From positions 3,435 through 67,434 of the forward strand of contig JAPDKC010000027.1 of the NCBI GenBank assembly GCA_029258755.1: a stretch of DNA of 64,000 nucleotides. Reading direction: 5' to 3'. This DNA is from an archaeon (lineage in GTDB: Archaea; Iainarchaeota; Iainarchaeia; Iainarchaeales; DTGL01). Position 1 is the stretch's first letter; the number at the start of each line of letters is the position of its first letter. Shown here in pieces: positions 676-27,804 of this stretch. Under the pieces are notes generated by a model. It worked only from the letters and a program-made list of their open reading frames with translations. It made no database searches and was not told the origin of the DNA. The translations under genes were made by a program, and so were the position numbers.

Positions 676-723
676 ATGCTAAATAGCGCAAAACACCTTA
701 TATATATTTTTCTTAAAATCACT

Positions 724-1041: not shown

Positions 1042-1089
1042 TGCAGCATATTTTAGTAGAAAAAATTTAATTAAAAAGGAATGGAAGCG

Positions 1090-2364: not shown

Positions 2365-2486
2365 GACCTCCCTTCACTTATTACCTCCAAAAATTTTTGT
2401 GAATATAAAGGCAAGATGAATATATATAAGGAACCATTAAATTTAAATATCCTTAACTTTGAGGCTTTTTAACACCATTAATTCAC

Positions 2487-4679: not shown

Positions 4680-4689
4680 AGTATCACCC

Positions 4690-5292: not shown

Positions 5293-5297
5293 AGTGT

Positions 5298-5729
5298 TTA
5301 CCTCTTCATCTTTTCAATTCTTCCTGTTCTAAGCATCTCCAAGCTCTGATCATTAACCTTTATTACCTTGTATTTTACGCCCCAGAGGTCTCCTTTTGCA
5401 CCGCCTTTTCTGCCACCAATACCTTCAATAAGTACCTCATCGTGTTCGTCAATATACTTTATAGCTCCATCTCCTGGAGCAAACGCAGTAACTTGCCTGC
5501 CATTTTTTATTAGTTGTACGCGAACACATTTTCTTATAGCTGAATTTGGCTGTCTTGCCTCAACACCGCGCTTTTCAAGTACTATTGCTCTTGCTTGAGG
5601 AGCTCCCTCAAGCGGATCAAGCTTCTTATTCTTACTTCTAAGCATTCTTTTCTTATACCTGGGGTCTTTCCATCGCCACTTTTGTCTATCCTTTTCAAGC
5701 TTCCTTGCTGCAAATTCACCATAGCCCAT
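5298..5729 (-). CDS. rps12: 30S ribosomal protein S12 (uS12)
   Basis: 143 aa with [23 protein letters not shown] motif region typical of uS12. Confidence 0.9.
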
Positions 5730-5739
5730 AAAATCTCAC

Positions 5740-6138
5740 CTAAAACCTCAGATCCTCTATATTATAATTTCTTTGGGCTATTTTTTTAATCCTTTTAAAT
5801 TTCCCAATGGAATCCATTATCTTTCTCCTTTCTGTCGAATCAAGTTTTAATTGAATATTATTTTCCTTCTTTTCTATTGCCAGTATGTTAATATCTGGGA
5901 GAGCATTCCTTATAAAATCATCAACATTTTCATAGTATGGGTATATTTCCACCTTCTTTCCAAAGGTTTTCGCTAGAAGCTTTGCTTTGATTCCTTTTTT
6001 TCCAATGGCTTTGCCTAAAAGCTCTGGTTTCACAAGGAATGCAATTGTATTGTTGTCTATGAAGCAATCTTTTGGCATGACTCCTGTTATAGAGTCAAAC
6101 TTGTTGAGATAAAAGATTTCCTCTTGTGTTAGTTTCAT
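5740..6138 (-). CDS. nusA: Archaeal NusA-like transcription termination factor (KH domains only)
   Basis: 132 aa with GKKGIKAKLLAKTFGKKVEIY KH-type segment. Canonical position between L30e and S12. Confidence 0.78.
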   Translation of the reverse strand: MKLTQEEIFYLNKFDSITGVMPKDCFIDNNTIAFLVKPELLGKAIGKKGIKAKLLAKTFGKKVEIYPYYENVDDFIRNALPDINILAIEKKENNIQLKLDSTERRKIMDSIGKFKRIKKIAQRNYNIEDLRF

Positions 6139-6455
6139 TTCTTTTCACTGCTTTTAGCTATCTCTAGTACCTTGCTCTTTCCAGGATCTATTATAAGCAT
6201 TGCTGATATGCTATGGGGCCTTCCGCATAAAGCACCTAAATCAAGAGAGCTTTTTTCGAACTCAAAAAACGCTATATTAGAAAGCTCTGCAAAATACTTC
6301 AGCTTTTCTTTTTTTTCTTTTTCAAGATTGCTACTTACAATTAATAGTTTGCCAATACCTTTTAAAACATTTTTTTCGCATTCCCTGAAGCCGAATACGG
6401 TTTTGCCGGTATCAACAGCCCTGCGTATCTCTTTTTCCACATCCATTTGGCTCAC
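6135..6455 (-). CDS. rpl30e: 50S ribosomal protein L30e (eL30)
   Basis: 106 aa. L7Ae/L30e-fold sequence. Canonical position between rpoA'' and nusA. Confidence 0.85.
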   Translation of the reverse strand: MSQMDVEKEIRRAVDTGKTVFGFRECEKNVLKGIGKLLIVSSNLEKEKKEKLKYFAELSNIAFFEFEKSSLDLGALCGRPHSISAMLIIDPGKSKVLEIAKSSEKK

Positions 6456-7654
6456 TCCTTCATTATTAGTTCTACCCTGCCAGTGCCAACCTTTACAGGC
6501 AAGCCAACTATGAGGTTTTCTACAACTCCCTGTAAAGGTTCGCGCTCGCCATGTAGAGCAGAATCAAATAAGTGCTTTACAGTTTCCTCAAAAGCAGCTC
6601 TTGCGAATGGTGACTGCTTGAGCCGCATAATGCCTGTGCGAACAGTACCTCTAATCTCACCGGTAAATGTAAGCAGATCTGCTATAAGCAGCAAATGCCT
6701 CAAATCAACCTTTATTCTGTTCTCTGTGAGTGTTTTGTGAAGCTCTTCTACAATAGCCCTTCTGCCGGCTTCTATGCCCAAGACCCTGGATATTTCCATT
6801 ACATCGTTTGTTGTTGTTCTGTAAGGATCGACTTCCTTTCTCTTAAGAACGGCTTTTAGATTCGTGCCCAAGGTTTTGATAACATATTCGCCATTCTCTT
6901 CAGTTACTATGGTTTTCTCAATTCCGCTTATTCCCTGCAAGCGCTTTCTCATAATCTTTAGCACTTCATTTCTTATCTTGAGCAAAGAAAGCTCCTTAGG
7001 GAACTGGATTATGAGCTTGTCCCTTCTTTTATGCACCTCGCCTTTCTTTATAGCTTCTCTTATCTTGCTTAACATTACTTCCTTATCCAAATTTCTCTCA
7101 GCGATTCTTTCCTCAATAAGCTCTATTTCAGCAGTCTTTTTCTTGAAGTCTTCTTTTACTCTTGCTATATCTTCAGTTCTTACATCGACTATATCTCTTG
7201 CAAACGCTTCAGCCTTCCTTTTATTATGCTTTAGTTCATCGTTTAGGTAAATCGTCATGCTAGCATACTTGGTTTTGCTCCTCCCATCAACGATCTCTTC
7301 AACTCTTTGGATTCCTGAACCAACACTAACTTCTAAAGCACCAGCATAGTGCTTTGTTCTTAAGGTGAGCTGCGTTCCTGGCTCACCTAAGGATTGGGCA
7401 GCAACTATGCCAGCTGCTTCGCAGGGCTCAACAAGCACTTGTTCATACTCCTTCTTAGCTTCCTCAATAAGCTTCTTTATTTCCTCTTCGCTGAGCTTTT
7501 CCCTCTCAGCAACCTCAAATAGCTCGTTCCATATCTTTTCAGGCAAGTTGCCACGTAGCTCAGCAAATTTTTCTTTCAGGGCTTGCTTTGTTTTTTTCTT
7601 TTCGCTTGGCTTTTCTTTACTTTCTGCATTTTTTCTTGGCATTTCGCTTTTCAC
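6452..7654 (-). CDS. rpoA2: DNA-directed RNA polymerase subunit A''
   Basis: 400 aa with GEPGTQLTLRTKHYAG (A'' signature, C-terminal third of the largest subunit). The 38-nt overlap with the rpoA' stop means the true start may be an internal Met. Confidence 0.9.
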   Translation of the reverse strand: MKSEMPRKNAESKEKPSEKKKTKQALKEKFAELRGNLPEKIWNELFEVAEREKLSEEEIKKLIEEAKKEYEQVLVEPCEAAGIVAAQSLGEPGTQLTLRTKHYAGALEVSVGSGIQRVEEIVDGRSKTKYASMTIYLNDELKHNKRKAEAFARDIVDVRTEDIARVKEDFKKKTAEIELIEERIAERNLDKEVMLSKIREAIKKGEVHKRRDKLIIQFPKELSLLKIRNEVLKIMRKRLQGISGIEKTIVTEENGEYVIKTLGTNLKAVLKRKEVDPYRTTTNDVMEISRVLGIEAGRRAIVEELHKTLTENRIKVDLRHLLLIADLLTFTGEIRGTVRTGIMRLKQSPFARAAFEETVKHLFDSALHGEREPLQGVVENLIVGLPVKVGTGRVELIMKE

Positions 7655-10260: not shown

Positions 10261-12078
10261 TCACGCTTTATCTACAAGATTTAGTTTTGGATAGATGCAC
10301 AAAGCTTTTAGCTCATCCAATAAGAGCTTAAATGCATAGCTCATTTCTACTGGATAGACCTTTGAACCGCCGCAAACAGGACAATATTTCTTGTTTCTTA
10401 TCTTGTCATCAACAGCTACTATGCCGCACTTTTCGCATACGTATTGTATTACCTTGTCTGAGTCCTCCACTATTTTTTCCTGTAGCAGTAGGCTTGCACC
10501 GTGTCCTATCAAGGTTTCGCCTTCCATCTCACCAAAGCGCAAGCCACCTTCCTTTTCTTTACCTTCTGTTGGCTGCCTTGTGAGTATCTGCACCGGGCCT
10601 CTTGCTCTTGCTTGAATCTTGTGCGCTACCATGTGGTAGAGCCTTCTGTAAGCAATAACACCTGTAAATACCTTTCCTTCTATACGCCTTCCACTTATAC
10701 CATCATAAAATGTTTCCATGCCGTCAGGTCTTAAGCCATGTTGCATAAGTAGCTTTTCTAACTCTTCTTGGTCAACATCATTGAACGGTGTGCCATCTAT
10801 TTGCTCAGCTTTCATGCTAGCGGCCTTACCAGCAAGCATCTCGAGTAAATGCCCAATAGTCATTCTGCTAGGTATAGAGTGAGGATTGAGTATCAGATCA
10901 GGCTTTATCCCGCTTGCAGTGAATGGCATATCTTCCTCAGGAACTATTGCGCCAACAACCCCTTTTTGTCCATGCCTTGAGGAGAATTTGTCACCTACTT
11001 CCGGTATGCGATCGCTCCTTACCTTAACCTTCACTATAGTATCGCCTTGAGGCCCTTGTGTAAGTATAACTCGATCGACGTAGCCATCCATGCCCTTTCG
11101 CACAACAACGCTTGCCTCTCTGCGTCTCTCGCGTACTACGCCAAATTCTGCTATCTCCTCCAAAAATCTAGGCGGGGATGTTTTACCTATAACAACTTGC
11201 TTTCCTTTCACATAGGATTCAACTTCCGCTAAACCATCCTCGCCAAGGGCTTTGTATGCTTCCTCGCCTAAATAGCCCACTGTTTCCTCACTTGGCACTT
11301 CGAACTTATCTTTTTGGCCACCTGGATAGCGTGTCTGCGTAGATTCATAGGTTCTGAAATAGGAAAGCCTGCCTAAGCATCTATCTATAGCGCCTTTATT
11401 TATAACAACGGCATCCAGGGTATTGAATCCGTAGTAAGGAAGGATTGCAACAACAAAGTTTTGTATTTGTGGCCTTCTGTCAAGCCCTATAAGATCCATT
11501 GTTCTGGTTTTGACCAAAGCCTTCTGCGGATAATGGAGCAAATAGCTTTCTGTGTCTGTTCGCATGCGGAAGTTTGCTTGCCCAAAACCAACGGCTTGCT
11601 TAAACATCTTCGCGCCGTGTAATGCTTTTCCACTGAGATTATGGCTCAAGAACGGAATCATGCTTGTTATTATGCTCAGTATTGCAGCCGGATTAATTTC
11701 AAGATGCGTATGCTCTTTTGTTAAATCTTCCTCTTTTTCCGCTATCAATGCGTTCTCTTCCTCTTCAGCATCGAGGAATTCTATTATTCCCTGCTCAACC
11801 AAATCCTGCCAGCTTAGCTCGCCTCTCTTGACCTTTTCGATATGCTCCTTTGTAAGCTTTGGCTTTCCATTCTCAACAACGATTAAAGGCCTTTGTACCC
11901 TACCGGAGTCACAATTTATGTATATTTCATTAGTGTGCTTATGGTAAGCGATGTTTACCTGAGAATCTATAATATTATTTCTTCTGGCCTCTATAAGCTC
12001 CTTTGTAAGCGCTTCCGGATTTGGATGAAAGCCGATAAGCTTTCCATTAATATAAACTTTTGCCTTTTCTCTCGCCAT
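10261..12078 (-). CDS. rpoB1: DNA-directed RNA polymerase subunit B' (C-terminal half of split B)
   Basis: 605 aa. GDKFSSRHGQKGV motif and a C-terminal Zn ribbon CEKCG...CPVCG. Confidence 0.92.
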   Translation of the reverse strand: MAREKAKVYINGKLIGFHPNPEALTKELIEARRNNIIDSQVNIAYHKHTNEIYINCDSGRVQRPLIVVENGKPKLTKEHIEKVKRGELSWQDLVEQGIIEFLDAEEEENALIAEKEEDLTKEHTHLEINPAAILSIITSMIPFLSHNLSGKALHGAKMFKQAVGFGQANFRMRTDTESYLLHYPQKALVKTRTMDLIGLDRRPQIQNFVVAILPYYGFNTLDAVVINKGAIDRCLGRLSYFRTYESTQTRYPGGQKDKFEVPSEETVGYLGEEAYKALGEDGLAEVESYVKGKQVVIGKTSPPRFLEEIAEFGVVRERRREASVVVRKGMDGYVDRVILTQGPQGDTIVKVKVRSDRIPEVGDKFSSRHGQKGVVGAIVPEEDMPFTASGIKPDLILNPHSIPSRMTIGHLLEMLAGKAASMKAEQIDGTPFNDVDQEELEKLLMQHGLRPDGMETFYDGISGRRIEGKVFTGVIAYRRLYHMVAHKIQARARGPVQILTRQPTEGKEKEGGLRFGEMEGETLIGHGASLLLQEKIVEDSDKVIQYVCEKCGIVAVDDKIRNKKYCPVCGGSKVYPVEMSYAFKLLLDELKALCIYPKLNLVDKA

Positions 12079-13905: not shown

Positions 13906-14721
13906 ATGGCTTTTACAGATATATTTGCAAGCTTCAATCCTTCATTCTTCCAGCAAGGAATCTTTGCAGAGAAGCTTTTAGGCATAGCACTTGGCAACTA
14001 TGCGCTTTGTTTCCTAACTATACTGCTCTTCCTTATTTTGGGTAAGATCGCTGTTTTCATATTTGGGCGTTATGTGCGCAAGCTGGCAGCAAAAACAAAA
14101 AGCAAGTTTGATGATATTATCGCTGAGACGCTTTCTAAGCCAATGCTTTGGCTTTTTGTTCTTGCTGGCTTTTACTTTGGAATAAGATTTCTTAGCTCGC
14201 AAGCTAGCATACTAGCGCTTGCAGATACTATAGTTTCGTCACTCGCCATCTTGCTAATAGCTTGGCTTTTCTGGCGCTTTGTTGACTCTGCAATCAAGTT
14301 TTACTTTATTCCGATTGCTAAGAAAACAGCAACGCAGCTCGATGAGCAGCTTATTTCGTTTGCAAGGAACGTTGCAAAAGCAGCAATAGGCATAATAGCA
14401 ATCTCGATGCTCTTAGAAAAGTTTGGTTACGATATAACCGCATTAGTAGCAAGCCTTAGCATAGGCAGCTTAGCTTTAGCTTTTGCTGCAAAAGAAACCA
14501 TAACAGATATATTTGGTGGTATAAATTTACTCGCTTCACAACCATTCGTTGTTGGAGATAAGGTTAAGATAGGCAGCAGCGTAGGAAAGGTTAAAGAAAT
14601 AGGGCTAATGCACATTCGCTTGGTAACCGATGAGGGCTACCTAATAACAATTCCAAATAGAAAGGTTGCTAGCTCAGAGATAACAAATATGAGCGCAGCA
14701 AAGCGGAAGAAGCAAAAATAA
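13906..14721 (+). CDS. Small-conductance mechanosensitive channel (MscS family)
   Basis: 271 aa. N-terminal TM helices plus an MscS-type beta domain (ITIPNRKVASSEITN). Confidence 0.8.
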   Translation: MAFTDIFASFNPSFFQQGIFAEKLLGIALGNYALCFLTILLFLILGKIAVFIFGRYVRKLAAKTKSKFDDIIAETLSKPMLWLFVLAGFYFGIRFLSSQASILALADTIVSSLAILLIAWLFWRFVDSAIKFYFIPIAKKTATQLDEQLISFARNVAKAAIGIIAISMLLEKFGYDITALVASLSIGSLALAFAAKETITDIFGGINLLASQPFVVGDKVKIGSSVGKVKEIGLMHIRLVTDEGYLITIPNRKVASSEITNMSAAKRKKQK

Positions 14722-14724
14722 TGC

Positions 14725-15168
14725 TTAGCTTTTAGCGCTTTTTTTCTTTTCTTTTAAGTTAACTATTCTGGCGCTGTAAAGAATAAAAAATACAATAAGC
14801 GCCGTTGTTACTGCTGTTATATATTCGCCCAAAGCAACAGCAAGCCCTATAGCGGAAACAACCCATAGGTCAGCAGCTGTTGTTAGGCCCCTTATTCTTG
14901 TTTCCGATCTGAATATAGCGCCCGCACCTAAGAAACCTATGCCTGTAACTATGCCTGCTGCCACTCGCGAGGGATCGACATTTGCAAATGAACCAAAGCT
15001 CATTGAAACAAGAGTGAAAACGCAAGCGCCCAAGCAAACCAAAGCGTGCGTTCTCACGCCTGCAGGCTTGTTCTTCGCTTCCCTTTCAAAGCCGATTATG
15101 GCACCTAAAGCAGTGGCTAAAAGAAGCCGTGCGATAAGCTCAATATTGCTTATGTACATGCTAACCAT
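14725..15168 (-). CDS. MgtC/SapB family membrane protein
   Basis: 147 aa. LLLATALGAIIGFEREAKNKPAGVRTHALVCLGACVF matches the MgtC N-terminal domain signature. Confidence 0.75.
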   Translation of the reverse strand: MVSMYISNIELIARLLLATALGAIIGFEREAKNKPAGVRTHALVCLGACVFTLVSMSFGSFANVDPSRVAAGIVTGIGFLGAGAIFRSETRIRGLTTAADLWVVSAIGLAVALGEYITAVTTALIVFFILYSARIVNLKEKKKSAKS

Positions 15169-15172
15169 TTTT

Positions 15173-15391
15173 CTATGCTTTTTTAAGCTCCTTCCGCTCT
15201 TTGAGCCAAACTTCCTTGAATTCCGCTATCTCCTCTTCGCTTAAGCCGAGCTCTCTAAGTTTCTCTACATGCTCTTCAAAGCTCATCTGCATGTATTGCT
15301 TGCGCCATGCCTTCATTTCTGGCGTATCTGGCAACGGCTTACCTTCTCGAGCTCTTTTTCGCACCATGTTGTTAATTTTTAAGAAAAGCAA
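15173..15391 (-). CDS. Small hypothetical protein (basic N-terminus, acidic helix)
   Basis: ORF only; no recognisable family. Confidence 0.35.
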   Translation of the reverse strand: MLFLKINNMVRKRAREGKPLPDTPEMKAWRKQYMQMSFEEHVEKLRELGLSEEEIAEFKEVWLKERKELKKA

Positions 15392-15409
15392 AATTTTATA
15401 ATAATACGC

Positions 15410-15772
15410 CTATTTTTTGCCGAAGGAAATTTTAACTACATCAAAGCTATCGTAAAAAGATATTCTCTTTTGAGATTTATAGATTATGATATGTGTTGCT
15501 ACTACCTCTGGATTCAGGTAGGGGGTTTCTTTTTTCAGTATTTTTTTCGTTTTTTCATTTAAATGTCCTTTCAAAAATTTTATGCCTGTTTTACCAAAAT
15601 GCTTATACCTTATCTCTCCTTCCAAGATTTTAAATTTAAACAATTCCGGATCAATGCTTTCTTTTTCCACATATTCTATGATAAAGGTATCAAAACCTTC
15701 ATCTAAAGCTTTATCTAAATATTTTTGCCATTTTTTCTGATTTGTTTCGCCTATGCTCAAAATTTTTAGCAC
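15410..15772 (-). CDS. Hypothetical protein
   Basis: 120-aa ORF, Lys-rich, no recognisable motif. First gene of the AT-rich island. Confidence 0.45.
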   Translation of the reverse strand: MLKILSIGETNQKKWQKYLDKALDEGFDTFIIEYVEKESIDPELFKFKILEGEIRYKHFGKTGIKFLKGHLNEKTKKILKKETPYLNPEVVATHIIIYKSQKRISFYDSFDVVKISFGKK

Positions 15773-15801
15773 CTTTATTTACATCTTTTTTGTGAACTCT
15801 A

Positions 15802-17103
15802 CTACCCACTGGGTGATGCAACAATAAAAACAAACCCGCTTAAAGACACATACAGGAGGAAGCATAGTAAGAGCCCAGTTGTAGTTCCCACTGCAATCGG
15901 TGCAGCATCCTGGGGAATGTTTTTATACGCTTCCAATCCCACCTCAATAGCTTTCTGACTTACTTGATAAGGTACAATCCACAAAAATTTTTTAATTTCA
16001 TTTCCTATTCTGTATGTATCTCTATCACAAATTTTCTTACATATCCTACTGGCAGAGTCATATATAAATGTACATAGTTTGGCTCTAGTATCGTAAAAGA
16101 TCCCTATATGAAGTTCAACAATCCATTTTCTTTGTGCCCTGTCATATACTTTTATATTTACGTGTTGCGTAGGTGCTTTAAGTGCTGGTTCTCCACATGC
16201 TTTTGCAGCCCCAGGCAAGGAGTGAGAGTGAGCATACACTATTACTTCATAATTTCCGCTGACCTCTTTGTAAAGAATTTTTGTGGCTCCTGCTATAGAT
16301 GGGGGATAGTTATAATAGCTTCCTCTATAGGAGTAAGGAGTATATGAACGCCTATAGGGAGAACAAGAACCGTAGGATCTTCCAGCAGTTCCTTCTTCTA
16401 TGACTCTTACACGCACAGTATCATTTATGCCATATCCAAATAGAGGTCCAACACCAAGTACACATCTCAATCCTTCTTCGCAGTCACTATCGTTCTTGCA
16501 ACCTTTTCCACCCTCCCTTATTTTCCCGCCACTTTGCGTATTTCCATACAACCATGAGTATTTTCTGTACCAATAACTAGACTGGGGAGTTCTTCTATAT
16601 GGTGAGGAATAACTACGATATCCAGATTTACATTCTTTTTTTACAGGATCGCATCCATATGGGCAGTATTTCCTTCCTGAAGAAAAATAGTTTCCATATA
16701 CGGTACCAGAAGGCCACTCAAGACATCTGTCGCTATCGTAGTTTCCACAAGTTTCTAAATAATTTCCATTGCATCTTTTTTCTCCAAATGTACATTCATT
16801 ATAGCAGCCCCAAGAGGATCGCCAATAGCTGCTCGAGGCATTGGTGGTTTTTGAATAATTGCTGTAAGAGATTGTTCTAAAAGAATGGTAATAATTTTGA
16901 CTGAATCTTCTGCTTATGTTATATCTATGGAGCACTCTATATGGGTTTTCTGTCAGAGAAGTGTTTTTCCATCGAGAGTTTCTATAAGGATAATAATAGT
17001 GCCTAATTATATACGCATTAACAGGAACAATGGAAATGAGAAGGAATATCACAAGAATTAGGGAAAAGGCCCTTAATATCTTGCCCAATTTTGTATATCG
17101 CAT
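15802..17103 (-). CDS. Cys/Tyr/Ser/Arg-rich secreted protein with N-terminal signal anchor and C-terminal TM anchor
   Basis: 433 aa. N-terminal hydrophobic LILVIFLLISIVPVNA; >20 Cys; long Y/S/R/N low-complexity segments. C-terminal GTTTGLLLCFLLYVSLSGFVFIVASPSG hydrophobic tail. Confidence 0.6.
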   Translation of the reverse strand: MRYTKLGKILRAFSLILVIFLLISIVPVNAYIIRHYYYPYRNSRWKNTSLTENPYRVLHRYNISRRFSQNYYHSFRTISYSNYSKTTNASSSYWRSSWGCYNECTFGEKRCNGNYLETCGNYDSDRCLEWPSGTVYGNYFSSGRKYCPYGCDPVKKECKSGYRSYSSPYRRTPQSSYWYRKYSWLYGNTQSGGKIREGGKGCKNDSDCEEGLRCVLGVGPLFGYGINDTVRVRVIEEGTAGRSYGSCSPYRRSYTPYSYRGSYYNYPPSIAGATKILYKEVSGNYEVIVYAHSHSLPGAAKACGEPALKAPTQHVNIKVYDRAQRKWIVELHIGIFYDTRAKLCTFIYDSASRICKKICDRDTYRIGNEIKKFLWIVPYQVSQKAIEVGLEAYKNIPQDAAPIAVGTTTGLLLCFLLYVSLSGFVFIVASPSG

Positions 17104-17208
17104 CTTATAATTTTGTTTTTTGTTAAAAATCTTTTAAAATTTATTTTTGGTAAATTTAATTTAACATTTTCCATAAACTTTTTATTACATTGAGTTCTAA
17201 AGTTTCTT

Positions 17209-17886
17209 ATGCTAGACGAATCCAAGAAAAACGAAATAAAAAGATTTGTAAAAGAATGGGTAAAAAGAAAATTCAACGAACTTTCTAAATTGGATCCCTC
17301 TGAATTACATCCAAATCCATTTTTACTTAGAGCTTTAGGAATCAAAGAAAATACCAAGGAAGCCTTTGAATTCGGGATTCGGCAAAGGATTGAAAGGAGT
17401 CTCGTCACATCTTTCGGACAATCTGTATTTGAAACTATGTTAAAGATTTTAGGCTTTGAAAAATCTAAAATAGAGGATATTGATCTTATTTTTGAAAAAG
17501 AAGGTACTAAATATTTTATTCAGTTAAAAAGTGGTCCTGAAGGATTCACAAGACCTGCTCTTAGTAAAACTAAACAAACTTTTGAAAAAATTAAATCTAC
17601 ACACCCAGATTGTAAAACGGTAATAGCTTTTGGTTATGGTGTGGCACAACGCCTTTCTCCAATTTGGGGGAGAGAAGCTAAAGAAAGTGCAGACTTACTT
17701 CTTATAGGAAAGGATTTTTGGGATTTCTTTTTGGGAGAGGGTACTTATGAAGAATTATTAAAAATATTTGAAGAAGCAGGCAATGAAGTAGTAAAAGAAA
17801 CGGGTGAAAAAGAAGGGTTGTACATCACTTTAGTCAGAAAGTTGTTGGAAAAGGTAAAGAATTTATTACAATTAGAAGAAATCTAA
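17209..17886 (+). CDS. Putative PD-(D/E)xK-like nuclease, candidate Type II restriction endonuclease
   Basis: 225 aa. IEDIDLIFEKEGTKYFIQLKSG resembles a D...(E/Q)xK catalytic core. Convergent, 7 bp from the stop of the adjacent DNA methyltransferase gene. Confidence 0.35.
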   Translation: MLDESKKNEIKRFVKEWVKRKFNELSKLDPSELHPNPFLLRALGIKENTKEAFEFGIRQRIERSLVTSFGQSVFETMLKILGFEKSKIEDIDLIFEKEGTKYFIQLKSGPEGFTRPALSKTKQTFEKIKSTHPDCKTVIAFGYGVAQRLSPIWGREAKESADLLLIGKDFWDFFLGEGTYEELLKIFEEAGNEVVKETGEKEGLYITLVRKLLEKVKNLLQLEEI

Positions 17887-17893
17887 ATTTCAC

Positions 17894-20296
17894 CTATTGC
17901 GGTAAGATTACTTTAGTAATAAACCCATTCTTGGTTGTGTCTATGGTATTTTTCTTACGAAGATCCACTAATGAAATATTAAAATATTTACAGACAAGAG
18001 TGCTTAGTTTAGGGCTCACTGACCCAAATATCTTTTTCAAAACATGTAAAAATATTAAACACTTATTGTGATTTGACAAATATCGTGAAAGATAATTCAA
18101 TATATTCTCATTTTTAGCGATTTTTATATATGCTTCTATACCTAACACTATACCCTGGGGTAAAATTACTTGCTGAAATAATTTATTCTTCTCTTGACAA
18201 TTTTTATAGTTGAAAGAAGTTAATTTTGCAGATGACGCGGCCATAAGAGTCAATAACCTTTCCCACTCTTGAATTTCATCATGAGGGCATATTTTTGCAT
18301 TTTGTAATAGAAGATCTACTTTTTTACAAAAGTTTAAAACTTCTTCCTTATCAAATTCTTTTTCTTTTCCATTTTTGTTAGCTATAATTAGTATTGTTCT
18401 ATTAAGCTTTGGTTCACCAAACATACTTACACTTCTTGTGGGATGTTCAGATACTATTGGATAAAACCCTTCTACTTTAAAGCCTGAAATGAAAAGAGAG
18501 TAGAGTATAGATTCCCACGCATTCCATGATTTATGAGTAAACCAAAGAATAAGTTTTCCATTATCCTTTAAAGCATCGTATGAAGCCCTCAAAAATTCTA
18601 CAAAATTTTTCTTATATTTTTCTACTTCTTTTTGAAAGTTATTACCCTTTTTGACTATTAATTCATCTTTTCTCGGAACGAATGGTAGTTTTGGATCCCA
18701 CCCAATAAATTCCCAACTTTTCTTTCCGTCTATCTCTTCATTAAAGAAATGCTTTTCTAAAATATCTTTTAATGAGTTTCTAAGGAAAATCCAAAAGAAT
18801 TCGCTAAGATCGCTATATATATGTTGGTCAAAATAAGGTGGATCTACATTTATTATATCTAGAGTTTTCCTTCCTAAATAATTAATTCTTTTTGCGTCAA
18901 ATTGTAAAATCTTACACTCCACGTTTACGTTTTCTAATTGTTTTACTAGTTCATTCACCACTGGAAAAATACCACCACCAGTAGTAGAAGAGGAGTTTGG
19001 TTCAAAAACCCAATATAAATTCTTAAAGGGTACTACTGCTTCAGAAAAGGTTAGATTTATCTGTATTTTTCTAGAACGAGCATATTGTCCTATTGTATCT
19101 CTAATACTTTTGTTAGTAAAGTTCCAAGTAGTCAAAATGGTATTAAAATCTACCATTTTACTTAAACCAAAAGAAAGATAAAGAGAAACGGCAGCTCCTA
19201 ATTCTCCATATTCATTTATAAGTTGTAATGATTTTTTGCGAATATATATCGTCAGTAAAACTAGACTAAGAAGTTGCCTAGGATTAAAAATCTCGTACCA
19301 ATATTTGATGTCATGTTCAAGTAAAGATGAAAAAACTTTATTTTCTTTAAGAATTTCTTCTTTTGGGAGGAATTTATCAAATTCACTTGTGTGGTCGGAG
19401 AGAAAGTTTGCAGCATCTACAAGTTTTAAATAGTCTTCTTCTTTAGGTTTTCTATAATTTCTGTTTTTATCCTTTATAAATAGGATTGGATAAACTTTCT
19501 TTATTTCTTCTTTGCTAACTTTCATTCCTCCGATAATCTTAGAGATAATTGTTTTATGTTCGTGGACCCACTCTTTTATTAAGGTATTTTTATTTTTCTC
19601 AAATTTTCTTCTACAATTATCGCATCTCACACTAAGAATATTTTTCTTTTTGACAACGTTTTTTTCTAAATCTAATGTTATTTGATTTCCGCAAAACGGA
19701 CATTCTACAATTTTCGAAAAGATATATGCATCATCACTTTCATTATAGAATTTTCGAAGTTTGAAATTAGCAAACTCTAGGAGTTTTTCAATCTCATTTT
19801 TTAAGAGGTTTAAGAGCTTTCTTTTAAACTTTAATGGAAATTCTATAGTCCCTTTTAATATAAGGTAAGCTACCGGATTATAATCAAAAGCAATAGTATC
19901 GGCTCCCAGTAAAACGCTTTCCAATGGAATTGAACCACCACCTGCCATTGGATCACAAAGGGTTATTGGTATTTTAAGAGGTGTTGGTAAGGTATATGAG
20001 ATAAGTGGTGGATAATTTTCTTTCACTTTTGAATGAATTTTATTCATGTTAAATAATTCAGAAATTTTTTGAGAGTTACATGCTAGTAAAACTGAAAATC
20101 TTGCCATGGACCTAGGTCTTCGTGCTAACCAAGGATGTATACTTCTAATTTTAGGATCAAAAAAATGTTTTGGGAATGGTATATTTAGTTCTTTACATCT
20201 CGCTATATAGGATGAACGGGGTTTATAACTCATTTCTATTGCAGCATCTCTATTTATTTCACGAAAAATTTCCAAAAATTCGTTGTCAATTTTCAT
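17894..20296 (-). CDS. DNA methyltransferase, DUF1156-type (N6-adenine/N4-cytosine class)
   Basis: 800 aa. HPWLARRP DUF1156-type motif. DPMAGGGSIP as SAM-binding motif I. Zn ribbon CPFCG...CDNCRRKF. Catalytic DPPY motif (INVDPPYFDQ). Confidence 0.8.
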   Translation of the reverse strand: MKIDNEFLEIFREINRDAAIEMSYKPRSSYIARCKELNIPFPKHFFDPKIRSIHPWLARRPRSMARFSVLLACNSQKISELFNMNKIHSKVKENYPPLISYTLPTPLKIPITLCDPMAGGGSIPLESVLLGADTIAFDYNPVAYLILKGTIEFPLKFKRKLLNLLKNEIEKLLEFANFKLRKFYNESDDAYIFSKIVECPFCGNQITLDLEKNVVKKKNILSVRCDNCRRKFEKNKNTLIKEWVHEHKTIISKIIGGMKVSKEEIKKVYPILFIKDKNRNYRKPKEEDYLKLVDAANFLSDHTSEFDKFLPKEEILKENKVFSSLLEHDIKYWYEIFNPRQLLSLVLLTIYIRKKSLQLINEYGELGAAVSLYLSFGLSKMVDFNTILTTWNFTNKSIRDTIGQYARSRKIQINLTFSEAVVPFKNLYWVFEPNSSSTTGGGIFPVVNELVKQLENVNVECKILQFDAKRINYLGRKTLDIINVDPPYFDQHIYSDLSEFFWIFLRNSLKDILEKHFFNEEIDGKKSWEFIGWDPKLPFVPRKDELIVKKGNNFQKEVEKYKKNFVEFLRASYDALKDNGKLILWFTHKSWNAWESILYSLFISGFKVEGFYPIVSEHPTRSVSMFGEPKLNRTILIIANKNGKEKEFDKEEVLNFCKKVDLLLQNAKICPHDEIQEWERLLTLMAASSAKLTSFNYKNCQEKNKLFQQVILPQGIVLGIEAYIKIAKNENILNYLSRYLSNHNKCLIFLHVLKKIFGSVSPKLSTLVCKYFNISLVDLRKKNTIDTTKNGFITKVILPQ

Positions 20297-20553
20297 TTTC
20301 CTACACCTCTAGCTATTTCTTTAACAACTTCTTCAGGAGATTTCAACTTATAAAGTCTTTTTCTTGCGTCCTCCGGATCCAATCTCATTTCCAGCCAACC
20401 AACCTTTCTCATTTCGGATAAAATAACGCTAACCATTCTTTCGTCATCTGGCAATGTTTGAGTAGCTTGCTCATGATTGAACTCTTTATCCTTAAACTTA
20501 ACCCAAAGCAAAGAGTAGCGTTGCATAAGCCATTTAGGTAAAGGTTCTACCAT
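20293..20553 (-). CDS. Small hypothetical protein translationally coupled to the methyltransferase
   Basis: 86-aa ORF; 4-nt overlap with the MTase start; 6 nt after the stop of the DUF262-HNH gene. Confidence 0.5.
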   Translation of the reverse strand: MVEPLPKWLMQRYSLLWVKFKDKEFNHEQATQTLPDDERMVSVILSEMRKVGWLEMRLDPEDARKRLYKLKSPEEVVKEIARGVGK

Positions 20554-20559
20554 TTTCTA

Positions 20560-21828
20560 TCACCTTTTTCTATGAATTTTATTTAAATGACATTCTTTAC
20601 ATACTAGTAAAGCATTCTCTACTATTGTCTTCCCACCTTCTATGTATCTATCTTTATGGTGAAAATGTGTATCGGGACTATCAAATTTTAATTCTTTACT
20701 ACATAGAGCACATTTACCGTTATATTTTCTAAAAATTTCTATTTTTTGTTCTTCTGTAAAAAATCTGTTTTCATCTAATCTCATTGGATTATATTTTTCT
20801 AAAAATCTTTTAAGAATCAGGGTATACCTCAGTGTTATGCTTTTTACACTTGTTGTGCCTTTACTCACGTTAATATTAAATTCTACTAATTCTTTATCTC
20901 CAGACATTGGAGCTTGTTTGACATCTTGATAAAATGTTTGTATAAAATTTTTGAAATTTTCTTTCCGAGTTTTCATTACATAATTTTCAAGAAGATGTGC
21001 AGCTAATAAATAAACTGTAATTATCCATGCAGGTTTTCTTAATTCTGGTGCTGTAGTTTGAAAGGTTTCTGTAAGAAAATTTAGGACACGGTGGATTTTC
21101 TTGTAAACTTTGGATTCTTTATTTAAGTGTTTATTCTTTTCAAAAAATTCGTAAATATATCTTGGACTGATATCCTTAATACCTTCACTTTCGAGATATA
21201 ATAATTGAGCGACAATATAGTAGTGTTTATATCTTTTTTTCTTGATTGGGACCACCTCTTTAAAGAATCTATGAGATGCTAATTCTCTCATTAGAAGAAC
21301 TATCTCTCCAGGAAAAGCGTTTAGTATCTCTCCTGGAAGTAGTGGTTTTCCATGTTGAAGTCTTCTAAATAAAACCCTTATTTCCTCATCTGTGTAATCT
21401 TCCAAGACTATAATTGGTAAAGGATAATTGTCAAATCTATTTTGCCATTCTTCATGAAGTTGGTTATATGTGTAAGCACCTTTACCATTATTCTTTTCTC
21501 TGTTTTTTTGATCATAAATAATATCAGCAGAAAATTTTTCGTTTAATTTTAATTTATTTTCTTTGAACTTCCAAATTGTGTTTAATCTTTGTTGCCCATC
21601 TACAATAAAATAGGTTTCCCCTTTTTTGTGTAGAAATATTGGCGGTACTGCTAATCCTCTAAGGATAGTATCTATAAAGTATTGCTCATCACTTAAACTC
21701 CACGTTCCAGCTTCTCGTTGATAGGTAGGATCAATTTTATATCTTTCCTTATGAAGTATAAACGTACTAATTAGTCGTGGTTTTGGTTCTGGAGGCTCTT
21801 TCAATCTCATTTTATCACCTATGTCCAT
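20560..21828 (-). CDS. DUF262 (ParB-like) - HNH nuclease fusion, GmrSD/SspE-like modification-dependent (type IV-like) endonuclease
   Basis: 422 aa. N-terminal IDPTYQRE...DGQQRLNTI DUF262 signature. C-terminal CALCS...HFHHKDRYIEGGKTIVENALLVCKECHLNKIH His-Me (HNH) finger. Confidence 0.8.
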   Translation of the reverse strand: MDIGDKMRLKEPPEPKPRLISTFILHKERYKIDPTYQREAGTWSLSDEQYFIDTILRGLAVPPIFLHKKGETYFIVDGQQRLNTIWKFKENKLKLNEKFSADIIYDQKNREKNNGKGAYTYNQLHEEWQNRFDNYPLPIIVLEDYTDEEIRVLFRRLQHGKPLLPGEILNAFPGEIVLLMRELASHRFFKEVVPIKKKRYKHYYIVAQLLYLESEGIKDISPRYIYEFFEKNKHLNKESKVYKKIHRVLNFLTETFQTTAPELRKPAWIITVYLLAAHLLENYVMKTRKENFKNFIQTFYQDVKQAPMSGDKELVEFNINVSKGTTSVKSITLRYTLILKRFLEKYNPMRLDENRFFTEEQKIEIFRKYNGKCALCSKELKFDSPDTHFHHKDRYIEGGKTIVENALLVCKECHLNKIHRKR

Positions 21829-21950
21829 AACATAATTAATAGTTTAAGAATTTATAAATTTTTTGGATAACCTATATACTTGACTATCGAAATATTTTAA
21901 TATTAGTTATGCTAATAACATATTAGATATGTGATAAACATAAGATAAAT

Positions 21951-21985
21951 CCCAGAGGGTGTTGGGTTAAGGGTCACCCTCTGGG
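21951..21985. repeat. GC-rich perfect inverted repeat (11-bp stem, 13-nt loop)
   Basis: cccagagggtg-ttgggttaagggt-caccctctggg in the AT-rich divergent intergenic region between the DUF262-HNH and integrase genes. Confidence 0.6.
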
Positions 21986-22002
21986 AGTGGAAGTGCCAGG
22001 CT

Positions 22003-23337
22003 ATGACAACCCCCACAATGAAAGATAGGGAAAGGAGGAAATATAAAACTTTTGTAAGTGAAAAATTTAGCTTGAGAAAGCTTCAGGAGTATGAAGAAGT
22101 TAAAACTTGGTTGAGAACGGTAAGTGAAAGTTCTAGAAGATTGTATTTACATGCTTTAAGACATTTCTGCGAATTTTGTAATAAAGACCCAAAAGAGCTA
22201 ATTTTAATGAGGGATAAGGAGATAAGAAATCCTGATCCGAATTCGAAAAGCGGTGTTAGAAACTTAATTCTTGATTTTAGAGAGTATTTGGAAAAAGAAG
22301 GTTATGCTCCAAAGACAATTAACGCTTTAGATGGTGCAGTAAGAAATTTCTTTTCTGCTATCCTTGGAAAAGCTGGAATGATAAATGTTAAGAATTACAA
22401 GGATGCTTGTGTTACTAAAAAGAAAGATTTTGTTCCAACTTTAGAGGAACTAAAGAAAATGTTGGAACTCTGTAATCTGGAGGAGAAGTTTAGGATAATT
22501 TTCTTAGCTCAAACTGGAATGAGAATTTCAGATGCCTTGGAATTAAAGGTTGGTAATGTTCTGAGAGAATTGGAATTAGGCAAAGTTCCCTTAGCAATTT
22601 ACTATGTTCCTAAGAAAGACAGAGATGCAATTGGAGAAAAAATAACTTTCTTGGCTTCAGATGGAGTTGAGATTTTAAAGCAATATTTAGAATGGAGAAA
22701 AAAGAATGGTGAAAATATTACGCCAGAAAGTCCTTTGTTTGTTGGAAGAAGTAAAAAGTATAATGGTATTAAGGTTACCAAACTTACTAGGCAAATGGTA
22801 AATTTGACTTTGAAAGAAGCTGTTAAGAGAGCTAGATTGGGGAATGGTAACGGAAAATATGGAAGGATAAGAGTCCATTGCTTAAGAAAATTCTTTGTCA
22901 CTCAACTAACAAATCACGGAGTTGAAGATAAGGTGGTTAACTTCTTTATTGGACATAAAATTCCTGAATTTGATAGAGTTTATTGGTTTAGGAGGGTTGA
23001 AGAGTTAAGAGAAATTTATAGGCAAAGAGAAAAGTTTCTTAATCCAATTTCTGGAACTCAGCATGAGGATTTGAGAAAGATTGAAGATTTGATCAAGAAA
23101 GTAAAAGAAATAGATGAAAAGTTGAAATCTTTAAATGAAACTAAGATCAAAGAGATTGTGTTTAATGTGATTAAAGAGTATGGAATTATTTTTAACGGGA
23201 CTAATCATTCAACTTCAAATCAAAAATATGATGTAAAGATTGTTACAAGTGAAGAAGAAATTATTGAGTTGGCAAAGCAAGGTTATGATTGTCAGCAAAT
23301 AGGAGAGAATAAGTGGTTGATGAAAAAGCGAATTTAA
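22003..23337 (+). CDS. int: Tyrosine recombinase / phage-type integrase
   Basis: 444 aa. Catalytic region with RISDALELK (Arg I), HCLRKFF (His-x-x-Arg II) and RVYW (Tyr). N-terminal SAM-like core-binding domain. Confidence 0.85.
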   Translation: MTTPTMKDRERRKYKTFVSEKFSLRKLQEYEEVKTWLRTVSESSRRLYLHALRHFCEFCNKDPKELILMRDKEIRNPDPNSKSGVRNLILDFREYLEKEGYAPKTINALDGAVRNFFSAILGKAGMINVKNYKDACVTKKKDFVPTLEELKKMLELCNLEEKFRIIFLAQTGMRISDALELKVGNVLRELELGKVPLAIYYVPKKDRDAIGEKITFLASDGVEILKQYLEWRKKNGENITPESPLFVGRSKKYNGIKVTKLTRQMVNLTLKEAVKRARLGNGNGKYGRIRVHCLRKFFVTQLTNHGVEDKVVNFFIGHKIPEFDRVYWFRRVEELREIYRQREKFLNPISGTQHEDLRKIEDLIKKVKEIDEKLKSLNETKIKEIVFNVIKEYGIIFNGTNHSTSNQKYDVKIVTSEEEIIELAKQGYDCQQIGENKWLMKKRI

Positions 23338-23353
23338 TTAATTAACCTTAACT

Positions 23354-24109
23354 TTACTGTAAGGATGCTGAAACCTTTTTTATAATTTTTTCCACTCTTA
23401 TTATTCCGAGTTTTGTGAGTTTTATTCCATTTTTATTAATATGGATAAACTTTTTTCTTTCCAATCTTCGTAAAGTTGTGCTGAGAAGTTGTGGATACTT
23501 TGGCTTCACAGAGAATATGATCTCATCTTTCTTAACCCTTTTTGGATAGTTAATATATAAAAGTAACAGAAGTTCATCGGAAAATGGTAAATTCTCCTTT
23601 AAAATTAAGATACTTCCATCCTCGAATTTTTCAACGACTGGTAATTTTCTCTCTACAAACTTATCTAAAACTTCTTTCATTTTATGTTCGTTAATCTTTT
23701 CCATAAAAAGTAAGAGTTGTGAAAATATCCAATCGGAAGCTTCAATAACATATTTAGCATCTATAAAATTTGGATCAATCTCTTTAAAATGAGCCACTTT
23801 CTTTTTACTTCTTAATGTATAAATCGATTTTGCGACAATAGGCACTACTAGTGTCAATATCTCGTCTTTCGCACTTAGTTTTTGTAGATTAATCAAGGTA
23901 TTAAACATTTTATCAAACTTGGATTTTCTAAAATCTATATTCTGTACATTATAGTATATCAAAATAGATCTAAGAACTATTTCAACGAATATTCCACCAG
24001 AAATTATTGTTTTTTCAAAGTCGGATAAAATAAAAGAATTCTTAATTTGATTATATTCCTTTATTAGTTCATTTATAAGCGGTATTTCTTGGAGTTTCAT
24101 CATATTCAC
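23354..24109 (-). CDS. Hypothetical protein (integrase-associated ORFan)
   Basis: 251 aa ORF, no recognisable motif. Confidence 0.45.
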   Translation of the reverse strand: MNMMKLQEIPLINELIKEYNQIKNSFILSDFEKTIISGGIFVEIVLRSILIYYNVQNIDFRKSKFDKMFNTLINLQKLSAKDEILTLVVPIVAKSIYTLRSKKKVAHFKEIDPNFIDAKYVIEASDWIFSQLLLFMEKINEHKMKEVLDKFVERKLPVVEKFEDGSILILKENLPFSDELLLLLYINYPKRVKKDEIIFSVKPKYPQLLSTTLRRLERKKFIHINKNGIKLTKLGIIRVEKIIKKVSASLQ

Positions 24110-24672
24110 GTGGATTTAACTTTCTCGATTTGTTCTTTTAATAGCTTCTTCGCTTCGTCAATGCCAGGCGGTAAAATATCTACAAACAAATATTTACCTT
24201 CTTTCCAGATTTTGATGTATTTTTTATACTTGGATAAATCTCTTTTTAAGTGAGAAACGTCGACCCATTTCTTTATCTTTTTAGACAATTCTTTTAGTTT
24301 GATAGGAGTTTTTTTGTAAATAGTCTTAAGTGGCAATAAAAGTATTAATGAAGCCTTTAACTGTTTACCTCTTCCTTCTAACTCTAGGTAATTAATATCT
24401 ACATCATCTTCCTTAAAATTATAAACATATTGTAAATCCTCTGCAGGGAAACCTAGCAATTTTTCCATATTTTTCTTTGGCTTCTGCACAGTTTTTTCAG
24501 TGTAATGGACTTTTTCTTCAATAATTAAACGAGAATACAATTTTTCAAAGTTTTCTTTAACAAATTTTTCATTTCCTTTTACTTCGATCTCGATTTCACC
24601 AATTTTTATTTTTATAGAGCATATAGAGTTTTCATTATTTTCTGTCATCTTTCTCACCATATTTACTTTCAA
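24106..24672 (-). CDS. Hypothetical protein (integrase-associated ORFan)
   Basis: 188 aa ORF, 4-nt overlap with the downstream gene. Confidence 0.45.
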   Translation of the reverse strand: MKVNMVRKMTENNENSICSIKIKIGEIEIEVKGNEKFVKENFEKLYSRLIIEEKVHYTEKTVQKPKKNMEKLLGFPAEDLQYVYNFKEDDVDINYLELEGRGKQLKASLILLLPLKTIYKKTPIKLKELSKKIKKWVDVSHLKRDLSKYKKYIKIWKEGKYLFVDILPPGIDEAKKLLKEQIEKVKST

Positions 24673-25069
24673 GTTCTTTCAAAATTTTTTCAATTTTTGT
24701 AGGGATTACACGATAAATTCCTTTTTTCTCACGTATCGAGAGTTTTTCATCTCTAATTTCCTTTAGCCTAGCCGAAACTTGCATTTTATCCACCATAAAG
24801 AAGTTTGAAATTTCTCGTGCCGAAAGAAAAGGTTTTATAGATTCATCTAGTTTACTAGCAATAAATCTTGCTACTAGTGCTAATTTAATCTTGTCTTTTA
24901 AAGTAAATTTGTCTCCAAGCTCCGTAAGATCAACTTCTCCTGTTTTTGTAATTTTACAATACCTCATAAGGCGTTTTACATACTGTGCTATTTTTTTCTC
25001 ATCAAAAGCTTTTTCATCAATTACCCATTTATTTTTTAGCTCTTCAAGATCGTCCATTTTCATACTCAC
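24635..25069 (-). CDS. Hypothetical protein, possible winged-helix DNA-binding
   Basis: 144 aa. C-terminal ISAREISNFFMVDKMQVSARLKEIRDEKLSIREKKGIYRV resembles a wHTH. Confidence 0.4.
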   Translation of the reverse strand: MSMKMDDLEELKNKWVIDEKAFDEKKIAQYVKRLMRYCKITKTGEVDLTELGDKFTLKDKIKLALVARFIASKLDESIKPFLSAREISNFFMVDKMQVSARLKEIRDEKLSIREKKGIYRVIPTKIEKILKELESKYGEKDDRK

Positions 25070-25216
25070 CTACTTGTTACCTGTATTTTGTATAATGTAT
25101 AATGTAAATTTAACCTTTATAAATCTTTTGGTAACCTACGTTTTGATAGAATACAAGGAAGAAACAGAGATGTTAAATTAAATTTACCAAAAATTTATTT
25201 TTCCAGCTTGTTACTC

Positions 25217-27804
<2,588 letters not shown>

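Follow-up and report, generated by a model that had tools for sequence, protein, structure and literature searches.

The 64-kb window analyzed here, a 64,000-nt stretch of contig JAPDKC010000027.1 from a Candidatus Iainarchaeum-like DPANN archaeon, carries a block of DNA between the stop codon of cdc48 and the promoter region of a gene for a cysteine-rich ORFan (Cys433). A tyrosine integrase, a restriction-modification (R-M) pair, a further nuclease, a small winged helix-turn-helix (wHTH) protein and three ORFans are enclosed there by a pair of inverted arms and a pair of short direct repeats. We consider it highly probable that positions 17149 to 25202 are an intact, recently mobile, site-specific integrative element of 8,054 bp, a "cryptic integrated element" (CIE). 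From left to right, the element and its ends comprise the following features, with positions given in the window:

17136-17148, plus strand: attL core, the left copy of a 13-nt direct repeat, AAAATTTATTTTT
17143-17167, plus strand: left arm, a 25-nt perfect inverted repeat, ATTTTTGGTAAATTTAATTTAACAT, reading inward, its first 6 nt overlapping the core
17209-17886, plus strand: type II restriction endonuclease of the EcoO109I/TdeIII family, 225 aa (PF14511, PF09520)
17894-20296, minus strand: DNA methyltransferase with a Zn-ribbon, DUF1156/HmaB-like class, 800 aa
20293-20553, minus strand: small winged-helix (wHTH) protein, 86 aa, a backbone gene that travels with the integrase
20560-21828, minus strand: DUF262 (GmrSD_N) plus HNH nuclease, NsnA-like
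22003-23337, plus strand: tyrosine integrase, 444 aa (Pfam PF00589, E = 1.3e-14)
23354-24109, minus strand: ORFan, 251 aa, with a C-terminal wHTH-like region
24106-24672, minus strand: ORFan, 188 aa, with a weak ParB-CE match (E = 0.0036, below cut-off)
24635-25069, minus strand: ORFan, 144 aa, the first gene of an inward-reading right-end operon
25170-25194, minus strand: right arm, the same 25 nt (ATTTTTGGTAAATTTAATTTAACAT), reading inward
25190-25202, plus strand: attR core, the right copy of AAAATTTATTTTT (pattern match at 25189/25190-25202)

The block stands apart from its surroundings in composition. In a 1-kb profile, GC content lies between 0.38 and 0.44 throughout the window except from 17 to 25 kb, where it is 0.285 to 0.334; resolved at 300 nt, the fall sets in at ~16.9-17.1 kb and is over at ~25.2-25.3 kb, with a separate small low-GC patch at 15.35-15.8 kb. 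The GC content of 17136-25203 is 0.303 against 0.398 +/- 0.008 in 191 equal-sized windows outside it (z = -11.9), the tetranucleotide distance of the same interval from the remaining window reaches z = 28, and GC at third codon positions is 0.20 to 0.32 in the genes of the element against 0.37 to 0.54 in the flanking genes. The AT-richness of the block is real and far exceeds chance. The original prediction, made from the sequence and its open reading frames (ORFs), had called an AT-rich island here; GC, tetranucleotide and codon-usage profiles set the block sharply apart from its flanks, and every item of the predicted gene inventory (a complete tyrosine integrase, three ORFans, an R-M-like locus and a Cys-rich protein) is present.

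Both GC boundaries coincide with the halves of a 44-nt inverted repeat of 84% identity (17124-17167 and 25170-25213) returned by a repeat search. The inner 25 nt of each half, ATTTTTGGTAAATTTAATTTAACAT, are identical at the two ends, and this string occurs twice in the window against 0 occurrences expected in 100 shuffles. The pattern A4+-YTTA-T4+ has exactly two matches in the 64-kb window, both on the plus strand and at the ends of the element. The core itself was found through the ends of related elements, since the direct-repeat search (10-nt seed, 14-nt minimum) was set too long for a repeat of 13 nt. The right core ends 14 nt before the cdc48 stop codon (25217-25219).

The crucial evidence comes from an unoccupied copy of the site in a 99.5%-identical strain. 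The single database match of the Cys-rich protein is an identical protein on a 6,461-bp ENA contig (L168), which opens with 21 nt of the cdc48 3' end, followed by a 59-nt spacer and the start of the Cys-rich gene. Positions 1-48 of L168 correspond to window positions 25237-25190 (100% identity), and positions 36-6461 to window positions 17148-10722 (99.47% identity over 6.4 kb). The 13-nt overlap of the two alignments is the core, and AAAATTTATTTTT is single in L168. In silico excision of 17149-25202 reproduces L168 over the junction, save for one single-nucleotide polymorphism 27 nt off. L168 is therefore an unoccupied site with a single core, and it demonstrates directly that the window holds horizontally acquired, integrated DNA. 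The horizontal acquisition originally proposed is upheld, a contig 99.47% identical to the window lacking exactly 8,054 bp and sister species, described below, lacking the whole of 15392-25216.

With both states of the locus in hand, the attachment sites can be written to the base. The empty site, attB, reads AATCTTTT, then the core AAAATTTATTTTT, then CCAGCTTG, and its junction sequence, written out, is AATCTTTTAAAATTTATTTTTCCAGCTTG. At the left end of the element, attL consists of AATCTTTT, the core and GGTAAATTTAAT; at the right end, attR consists of TAAATTTACC, an A plus the core, and CCAGCTTG. The attP of the free form would accordingly combine TAAATTTACC, an A plus the core, and GGTAAATTTAAT, with a predicted junction sequence of TAAATTTACCAAAAATTTATTTTTGGTAAATTTA. 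Integration should leave every gene intact, because attB lies inside the 59 nt that separate the cdc48 stop codon from the start of Cys433; after integration the Cys-rich gene is still preceded by the core and by all the sequence that follows the core. Integration into a tRNA gene was considered and rejected, attB being intergenic and the nearest tRNA gene sitting at 31.5 kb in the window (none lies within 6 kb of the element), and an Rfam scan of 14.5-25.6 kb returned no match.

L168 ends 35 nt past the core on the cdc48 side, as is expected of an assembly-graph branch where filled and empty alleles coexist. There are hints, then, of polymorphism within the population of sample ERZ26872903.

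The integrase belongs securely to the tyrosine recombinases. It scores 54.7 bits against PF00589 (cut-off, 27.1) and combines a SAM-like N-domain with that family; R174, K205, R295, H318 and Y327 are invariant and H292 at least 90% conserved in 25 homologues, and its R, HxxR, H and Y align with their counterparts in XerD. The best fold match of an AlphaFold2 model (pLDDT 73.7) is the archaeal XerA structure 5hxy (E = 7e-9), with IntI4, XerH, Tn1549 Int, Cre and lambda Int among the further matches. Likeness to Xer proteins in sequence is remote (70 bits against the XerA NCBIfam model, whose cut-off is 220; PDB profile E ~2e-6). To the Xer/Cre-like two-domain core is added a conserved C-terminal extension of ~100 aa, made up of long helices and then a small alpha/beta domain, in which C430, W438, L439 and M440 are invariant and for which the fold-search matches offered no counterpart.

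Several established modes of recombination were weighed for this enzyme and set aside. The gene is uninterrupted in the integrated state, an intact 444-aa ORF with the att cores outside it at distances of 4.9 kb and 1.9 kb, which rejects a suicidal integrase of the SSV type. An integron is rejected on two counts: the integron-integrase NCBIfam models give 29.6 and 15.4 bits against cut-offs of 265 and 435, and every element examined has its own integrase and two ends of identical type. Nor is this an integrative mobile element exploiting the host Xer at dif (IMEX), as the element has an integrase of its own. In the divergent promoter region between the integrase and wHTH genes (~21845-21875), the string GAATTTATAAATTTTTTGGATAA resembles the att core and the start of the arm (AAAATTTATTTTTGGTAAA) and is conserved in sister elements; judged by this resemblance, it may serve to bind the integrase or in autoregulation, or may be no more than a TATA box.

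These features suggest how the element might move. The excised circle would carry attP as a long dyad of the form arm'-A5-TTTA-T5-arm, similar to lox or dif but longer. Its own Xer/Cre-like integrase would occupy the arms and pair attP with an A/T-rich attB of the same 13-bp core, and strand exchange would take place within the core around the asymmetric centre, with orientation fixed by the two central nonpalindromic base pairs (TT within AAAAAT-TT-ATTTTT). Once the element is installed, its R-M pair and its DUF262-HNH nuclease probably defend the host cell and, by postsegregational killing, stabilize the element, and the 86-aa wHTH protein probably regulates either the cargo operon or the direction of recombination.

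The integrase is far from solitary. More than 190 homologues at 50 to 92% identity were found, some of them in metagenome-assembled genomes (MAGs) labelled by their depositors as Bathyarchaeia, Parvarchaeota, Hydrothermarchaeales, Thermoplasmatota and Aenigmarchaeota. Clustering at 50% reduces the family to a single full-length representative, with the next relatives at ~40% and ~30% identity. One full-length member (P0021, 63% identity) is filed under a bacterial Cloacimonadota MAG, either a misbinned archaeal contig or a cross-domain occurrence. A protein-level search of 2.9 million IMG/VR contigs found no relatives of the family, the exact arm sequence had no match in IMG/VR, and exact-sequence look-ups of cdc48 and the integrase returned no record.

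For a comparison of ends, we fetched 87 loci encoding such integrases, of which 16 have enough sequence on both sides. An inverted-repeat pair brackets the integrase in all 16, spanning 3.0 to 9.7 kb. Reading inward, the legible ends are built alike, from host DNA, four or five A, a 4-nt YTTA centre, four or five T and an element-specific arm. The YTTA centre lies on the same strand at both ends and so forms a direct repeat, the sole exception being L130, with CATA/CTTA at a tandem junction. Most of the 16 loci have an A4-5/YTTA/T4-5 or AAATATATTT core in direct orientation just outside the arms; the palindromic AAATATATTT is the core of a second group and AAAACTATGGTTT that of a third, and cores of 12 to 14 nt (AAAAYTTATTTT, AAAACTATGGTTT or AAATATATTT) recur at both ends of unrelated insertions. 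The arms contain a dyad of their own centred on TTWAA, of which GGAAGTTAAACTTCC, GAATGTTAAACATTC and ACGTACATTTAATGTACGT are examples in related elements and TAAATTTAATTTA is the version in the window. By its sequence, this end plan is what a simple tyrosine-recombinase site would be expected to produce on integration: if attP is arm'-core-arm and attB is the core only, then attL and attR share the core and the arms appear as terminal inverted repeats (TIRs).

An arm and core directly follow the integrase stop codon in ~50 of 73 loci by eye (30 by a stricter regular expression). The arm dyad after the integrase and the T-run of the core together have the form of a hairpin plus oligo-T (for example, L109 11039-11085 and L115 1515-1560), and on the strength of that form they may double as a transcription terminator for the integrase gene. 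Arm similarity climbs with integrase identity, from 0.34 to 0.77 (Mantel p ~0.001). Shared descent could by itself explain this covariation, because arm and integrase are linked on the same element. The 25-nt arm of the window element is also found at the ends of L088, L081 and L160, and elements with identical arms (these three and the window) have integrases that are 83 to 92% identical. In L088, whose left arm is the same and whose integrase shares 91% identity, the cargo is another R-M set plus an HhH-GPD glycosylase; L081 and L160 have the right arm of the window and other genes between the integrase and the end.

Cargo, by comparison, is freely exchanged: the integrase is the only gene common to all 16 delimited elements, and the smallest of these, at ~3.0 kb, consist of an integrase and one cargo gene (L133, L143). 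Homologues of the wHTH protein at 70 to 90% identity adjoin the integrase in L081, L088, L087, L162 and L138. Where the wHTH gene is present, it is always translationally coupled to a defence gene, and the family of that gene changes: a DUF1156-type methyltransferase in the window, a C5 methyltransferase in L088, a type IIG enzyme in L087, an N4/N6 methyltransferase in L082 and a PLD-nuclease/SNF2-helicase fusion in L081 and L089. The fusion rules out a constant coupling to methyltransferases. The wHTH gene overlaps its neighbour by 4-nt ATGA motifs at 20293-20296 in the window, 4614-4617 in L088 and 2778-2781 in L081, and it overlaps or abuts the next gene at ~9558-9571 in L087, ~9583 in L082 and ~7161-7174 in L089. 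The junction has the look of a constant position for expressing cargo that can be swapped, or alternatively of a controller of the C-protein type. Elsewhere in the family the cargo includes BrxL, GmrSD-like and TIR proteins, an M28 peptidase, and large secreted proteins with beta-helix/NosD, FG-GAP, PKD or PQQ-propeller domains.

In seven loci the arms of two element types face each other across one core: L085 (15471-15780), L082 (7560-7640 and 12988-13060), L101 (~2480-2530), L104 (~11320-11365), L113, L127 (~3295-3350) and L130 (~6605-6665). Read from the arms alone, these junctions suggest tandem integration at a reused core.

The cargo of the window element can be named in part. The restriction endonuclease matches PF14511 (E = 2.2e-16, covering 4-193 of 198) and PF09520 (E = 1.4e-17), and its REase_II matches in PADLOC are weak. 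The methyltransferase matches the PADLOC models HmaB (1.9e-32) and MTase_II (1.6e-30), PHROG 10183 (DNA methyltransferase, 8e-64) and the NCBIfam model DUF1156_antiphage (3e-30), and its translation contains the motifs DPMAGGGS and DPPY. The two adjacent genes have what would be expected of a type II R-M pair, catalytic motifs included. The stop codon of the wHTH gene overlaps the methyltransferase start by 4 nt, and the wHTH product is a putative regulator or directionality factor. The DUF262-HNH nuclease (PF03235, 7.6e-17; PF01844, 7.4e-06), which has a DGQQR motif and NsnA as its best PADLOC model (1.8e-28), probably starts at the ATG at 21810 (MRLKEPP...) rather than at 21828. A type IV enzyme of the GmrSD kind was considered for it and rejected, since DUF262 is present but the C-terminal domain is HNH (PF01844) and not DUF1524. 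Compared with L088, L138, L081, L162 and L156, this gene is an exact 1.26-kb addition that separates the wHTH gene from the integrase promoter, and it is bounded by a duplicated segment with ribosome-binding site and start, CATTTT(C)TATCACC, at 20548-20566 and 21815-21832.

At the right end, the 251-aa ORFan has no Pfam, NCBIfam or PADLOC match, and the 144-aa ORFan, whose probable start is the ATG at 25063, has no family match and no homologue in the related loci. A phmmer search with the ORFans, the restriction endonuclease and the methyltransferase against all ORFs of the 87 loci found only the L088 homologues of the 251-aa and 188-aa ORFans. A conserved three-gene backbone at the right end was entertained and rejected, the similarly placed genes of L082 giving BLASTP E values of 0.13 to 0.14, which are not significant. 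All cargo genes are uninterrupted ORFs, and no viral, conjugative or replication hallmark gene was recognizable in the element by Pfam, NCBIfam or PHROGs.

To the left of the element lies DNA that the original prediction had included in a single island of ~9.8 kb:

15392-17135, minus strand: separate variable segment outside the element, with two ORFans
15410-15772, minus strand: ORFan, 120 aa, GC 0.29
15802-17103, minus strand: Cys433, Cys-rich ORFan, 433 aa, predicted secreted, with N- and C-terminal hydrophobic segments

The interval from 15.4 to 17.1 kb is heterogeneous, with a GC content of 0.29 in the 120-aa ORF and 0.386 in the Cys-rich gene. The Cys433 protein is rich in Cys, Tyr and Ser and found no homologue but itself among 5.8 billion proteins. 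Neither gene is cargo of the element, because L168 keeps both. The predicted island therefore holds as a mobile unit for 8.05 kb and fails for 15392-17135; the alternative left boundary of ~17.1 kb that had been offered alongside 15.4 kb is the true end of the mobile element.

The closest relatives of the host cdc48 gene come from Candidatus Iainarchaeum MAGs, at 90% identity in L001 and L005 and 77 to 79% in L002 to L004. In L001 and L005 the cdc48 stop codon is followed, after ~80 nt, by a homologue of the 72-aa ORF at 15173-15367 of the window and then by MgtC and MscS. The whole of 15392-25216 is thus absent from the sister species, and this synteny, the comparison that had been suggested for the locus, favours insertion. 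The MscS-MgtC pair (13906-15168) is present in the window, L168, L001 and L005 and not in L002 to L004, where the 72-aa ORF is followed directly by an Rpb5-like gene. Going by gene order, the absence of 15392-17135 from L001 and L005 marks a second variable segment, older or independent; repeats flanking it do not rise above shuffled controls (86/500). The island is composite, an 8,054-bp integrative element plus a separate left variable segment, and the interval between cdc48 and the rpo genes is a site of recurrent gene gain and loss in this lineage.

Some observations weigh against an intact and mobile integrative element. Among the 87 related loci there was neither an attP-like palindrome of two like arms nor a circular contig, and for this particular copy, excision is deduced from the difference between strains rather than from reads. 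The core centre varies among sister elements whose arms are the same (TTTA here, TATA in L081 and L160, TTTG at the left end of L088), and a strict requirement for overlap identity does not explain three such centres beside identical arms. The arms are putative binding sites, for the integrase or for the wHTH protein, and a function in replication or packaging might be concealed among the three ORFans.

The differing core centres speak for a transposon-like element, in which TIRs with a target duplication, or a coupling sequence of the Tn916/Tn1549 type, would reflect a recombinase with relaxed choice of A/T-rich targets. Such an element would also have perfect terminal inverted repeats and a simple intergenic A/T-rich target motif; its insertions would be scattered over many contexts, as those of the family are, and the fold matches of the integrase include Tn1549 Int. 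We nevertheless regard this account as unlikely. The same 12- to 14-nt core stands at both ends of unrelated insertions, and the two ends share their centre in each complete element read except L130. Tn916-type elements typically have different coupling sequences at their two ends. A conventional TIR transposon (IS/DDE or casposon) we reject outright: Pfam, NCBIfam and PHROGs scans found neither a DDE transposase nor Cas1, and the flanking repeat is a conserved motif common to unrelated insertions rather than an arbitrary duplication.

About equally improbable, in our judgment, is an account in which a plasmid or provirus has integrated, its genes for replication or structure concealed among the ORFans, and integration is only one stage of a replicative life cycle. 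The inward-reading operon of three ORFans, two with wHTH-like regions and one with the weak ParB-CE match, would suit it, and a parallel exists in Yucahu-i, which has an SF3 helicase and in circular form attains 4x copy number (PMC11529989). Against it stand the lack of virion or replication matches in PHROGs and of integrase relatives in the IMG/VR contigs, the restriction of the ORFans' homologues to L088, and the minimal ~3.0-kb members of the family, which imply that a replication module is not part of its backbone.

A degraded, immobile remnant, with a fossil integrase and persistence by vertical descent only, had been raised in the original prediction, and we find it very improbable. It would account for the lack of detected replication, capsid or conjugation genes, for the secondary insertion of the DUF262-HNH gene and for the adjacent variable DNA without recognizable ends at 15392-17135. 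Against it, the two att cores match exactly, the 25-nt arms have no mismatch, the integrase is full length with all its catalytic residues, the cargo ORFs are uninterrupted, and the compositional contrast is strong, with no amelioration. Presence and absence differ, moreover, between strains 0.5% apart. An invertible segment, in which inversion of the 8-kb block by the integrase would serve phase variation of the defence genes, has in its favour the long perfect inverted repeats that flank a tyrosine recombinase beside R-M genes, but it can be dismissed as barely credible, since the observed polymorphism is one of presence or absence and not of inversion, the asymmetric core centre stands in direct orientation at both ends, which favours excision, and the repeats split no promoter or gene.

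The integrative element thus delimited has consequences beyond this locus. DPANN mobile elements are poorly charted, and few have ends that are defined experimentally or comparatively; here attB, attL and attR are resolved to the nucleotide, and a sequence for attP can be predicted from them. For annotation, 8.05 kb of the ~9.8-kb island are to be treated as one mobile unit. The dyad arms, the shared A/T core, the integrase-only backbone, the swapping of cargo and the apparent stacking may be undescribed at the level of the family, the core strings of which had no occurrence elsewhere in the searchable literature. It is conceivable, and we offer the idea tentatively as somewhat less than an even bet, that these elements make up an undescribed family of integrase-only "cargo shuttles" of 3 to 10 kb, spread over MAGs with the labels of several archaeal phyla, with a long palindromic attP like lox or dif, a common intergenic A/T core of 12 to 14 bp, tandem stacking, and exchange of single defence or surface genes on a backbone of integrase with or without wHTH. 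Were that so, they would be an archaeal functional counterpart of integron cassettes or tycheposons, and the TTTA, TATA and TTTG centres beside identical arms would reflect a tolerance of overlap heterology like that of Tn916, with semirandom targeting. The integrase family is unusually conserved, and through it defence and surface variability may pass among uncultured archaea to a significant extent. An enzyme this small and self-contained, with its short A/T target, could serve as an archaeal genetic tool.

Comparison with known systems places the element among several well-studied relatives. Its best fold matches point to XerA/dif, Cre/loxP and XerH/difH, and its inferred site likewise has two inverted arms around a short asymmetric centre. 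The arms in the window are longer (at least 19 to 25 nt, with an internal dyad), the integrase has the C-terminal extension of ~100 aa, and the enzyme is encoded by the mobile element and integrates it rather than resolving chromosome dimers. The element shares with Tn916 and Tn1549 its use of a tyrosine integrase (Tn1549 Int being one of the fold matches), ends with imperfect inverted repeats, and A/T-rich targets. It differs in lacking conjugation genes and in the identical 13-nt core shared by its two ends and single in the empty site, where those elements have heterologous coupling sequences.

Among archaeal integrases, which a review by Badel et al. (2021, PMC8371274) sorts into 17 families and into SSV-type and pNOB8-type (nonsuicidal) enzymes, ours resembles the pNOB8 type in that integration leaves the gene whole, with the att sites beyond its limits; its target, unlike theirs, is not a tRNA gene. 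Mobile R-M units (Furuta, Abe and Kobayashi 2010, PMC2853133) are similarly linked to an integrase and coincide with genome polymorphism. In the window, by comparison, vehicle, ends and empty site are fully defined, and the same backbone carries non-R-M cargo in other genomes.

The nearest described example appears to be Yucahu-i of Atabeyarchaeum deiterrae, an element of ~10.9 kb (Valentin-Alvarado et al. 2024, PMC11529989) that we compared by its description and att string. According to the sections of that account used here, it too has a tyrosine integrase, HTH proteins and a type IIG R-M enzyme with DPANN relatives, and its att repeat, AATTAACTTAT, is very AT-rich and short, with the same A-CTTA-T centre as this integrase family. 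The same sections report excision and circles demonstrated by read mapping and a smaller element nested inside. Yucahu-i differs in encoding a Holliday-junction resolvase and an SF3 helicase, and inverted-repeat arms are not mentioned in those sections.

The class to which the element belongs was defined for Thaumarchaeota by Krupovic et al. (2019, PMC6563490). As characterized in the excerpted parts of that paper, CIEs are, like the element in the window, small (2.6 to 98 kb) and integrase-carrying, without viral or conjugative hallmarks and with short direct-repeat att sites; they share with it intergenic targets in a minority of cases, R-M and defence cargo, and the reuse of an att site in tandem. 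Most CIEs target tRNA genes, whereas the element described here is intergenic and resides in a DPANN host. Long dyad arms just inside the att core and a core common to MAGs labelled as several phyla, characteristic of this family, are not met with in the same parts of the paper. With its ends, its empty site and its integrase family in view, the element is a fully delimited addition to the established class of archaeal cryptic integrated elements.

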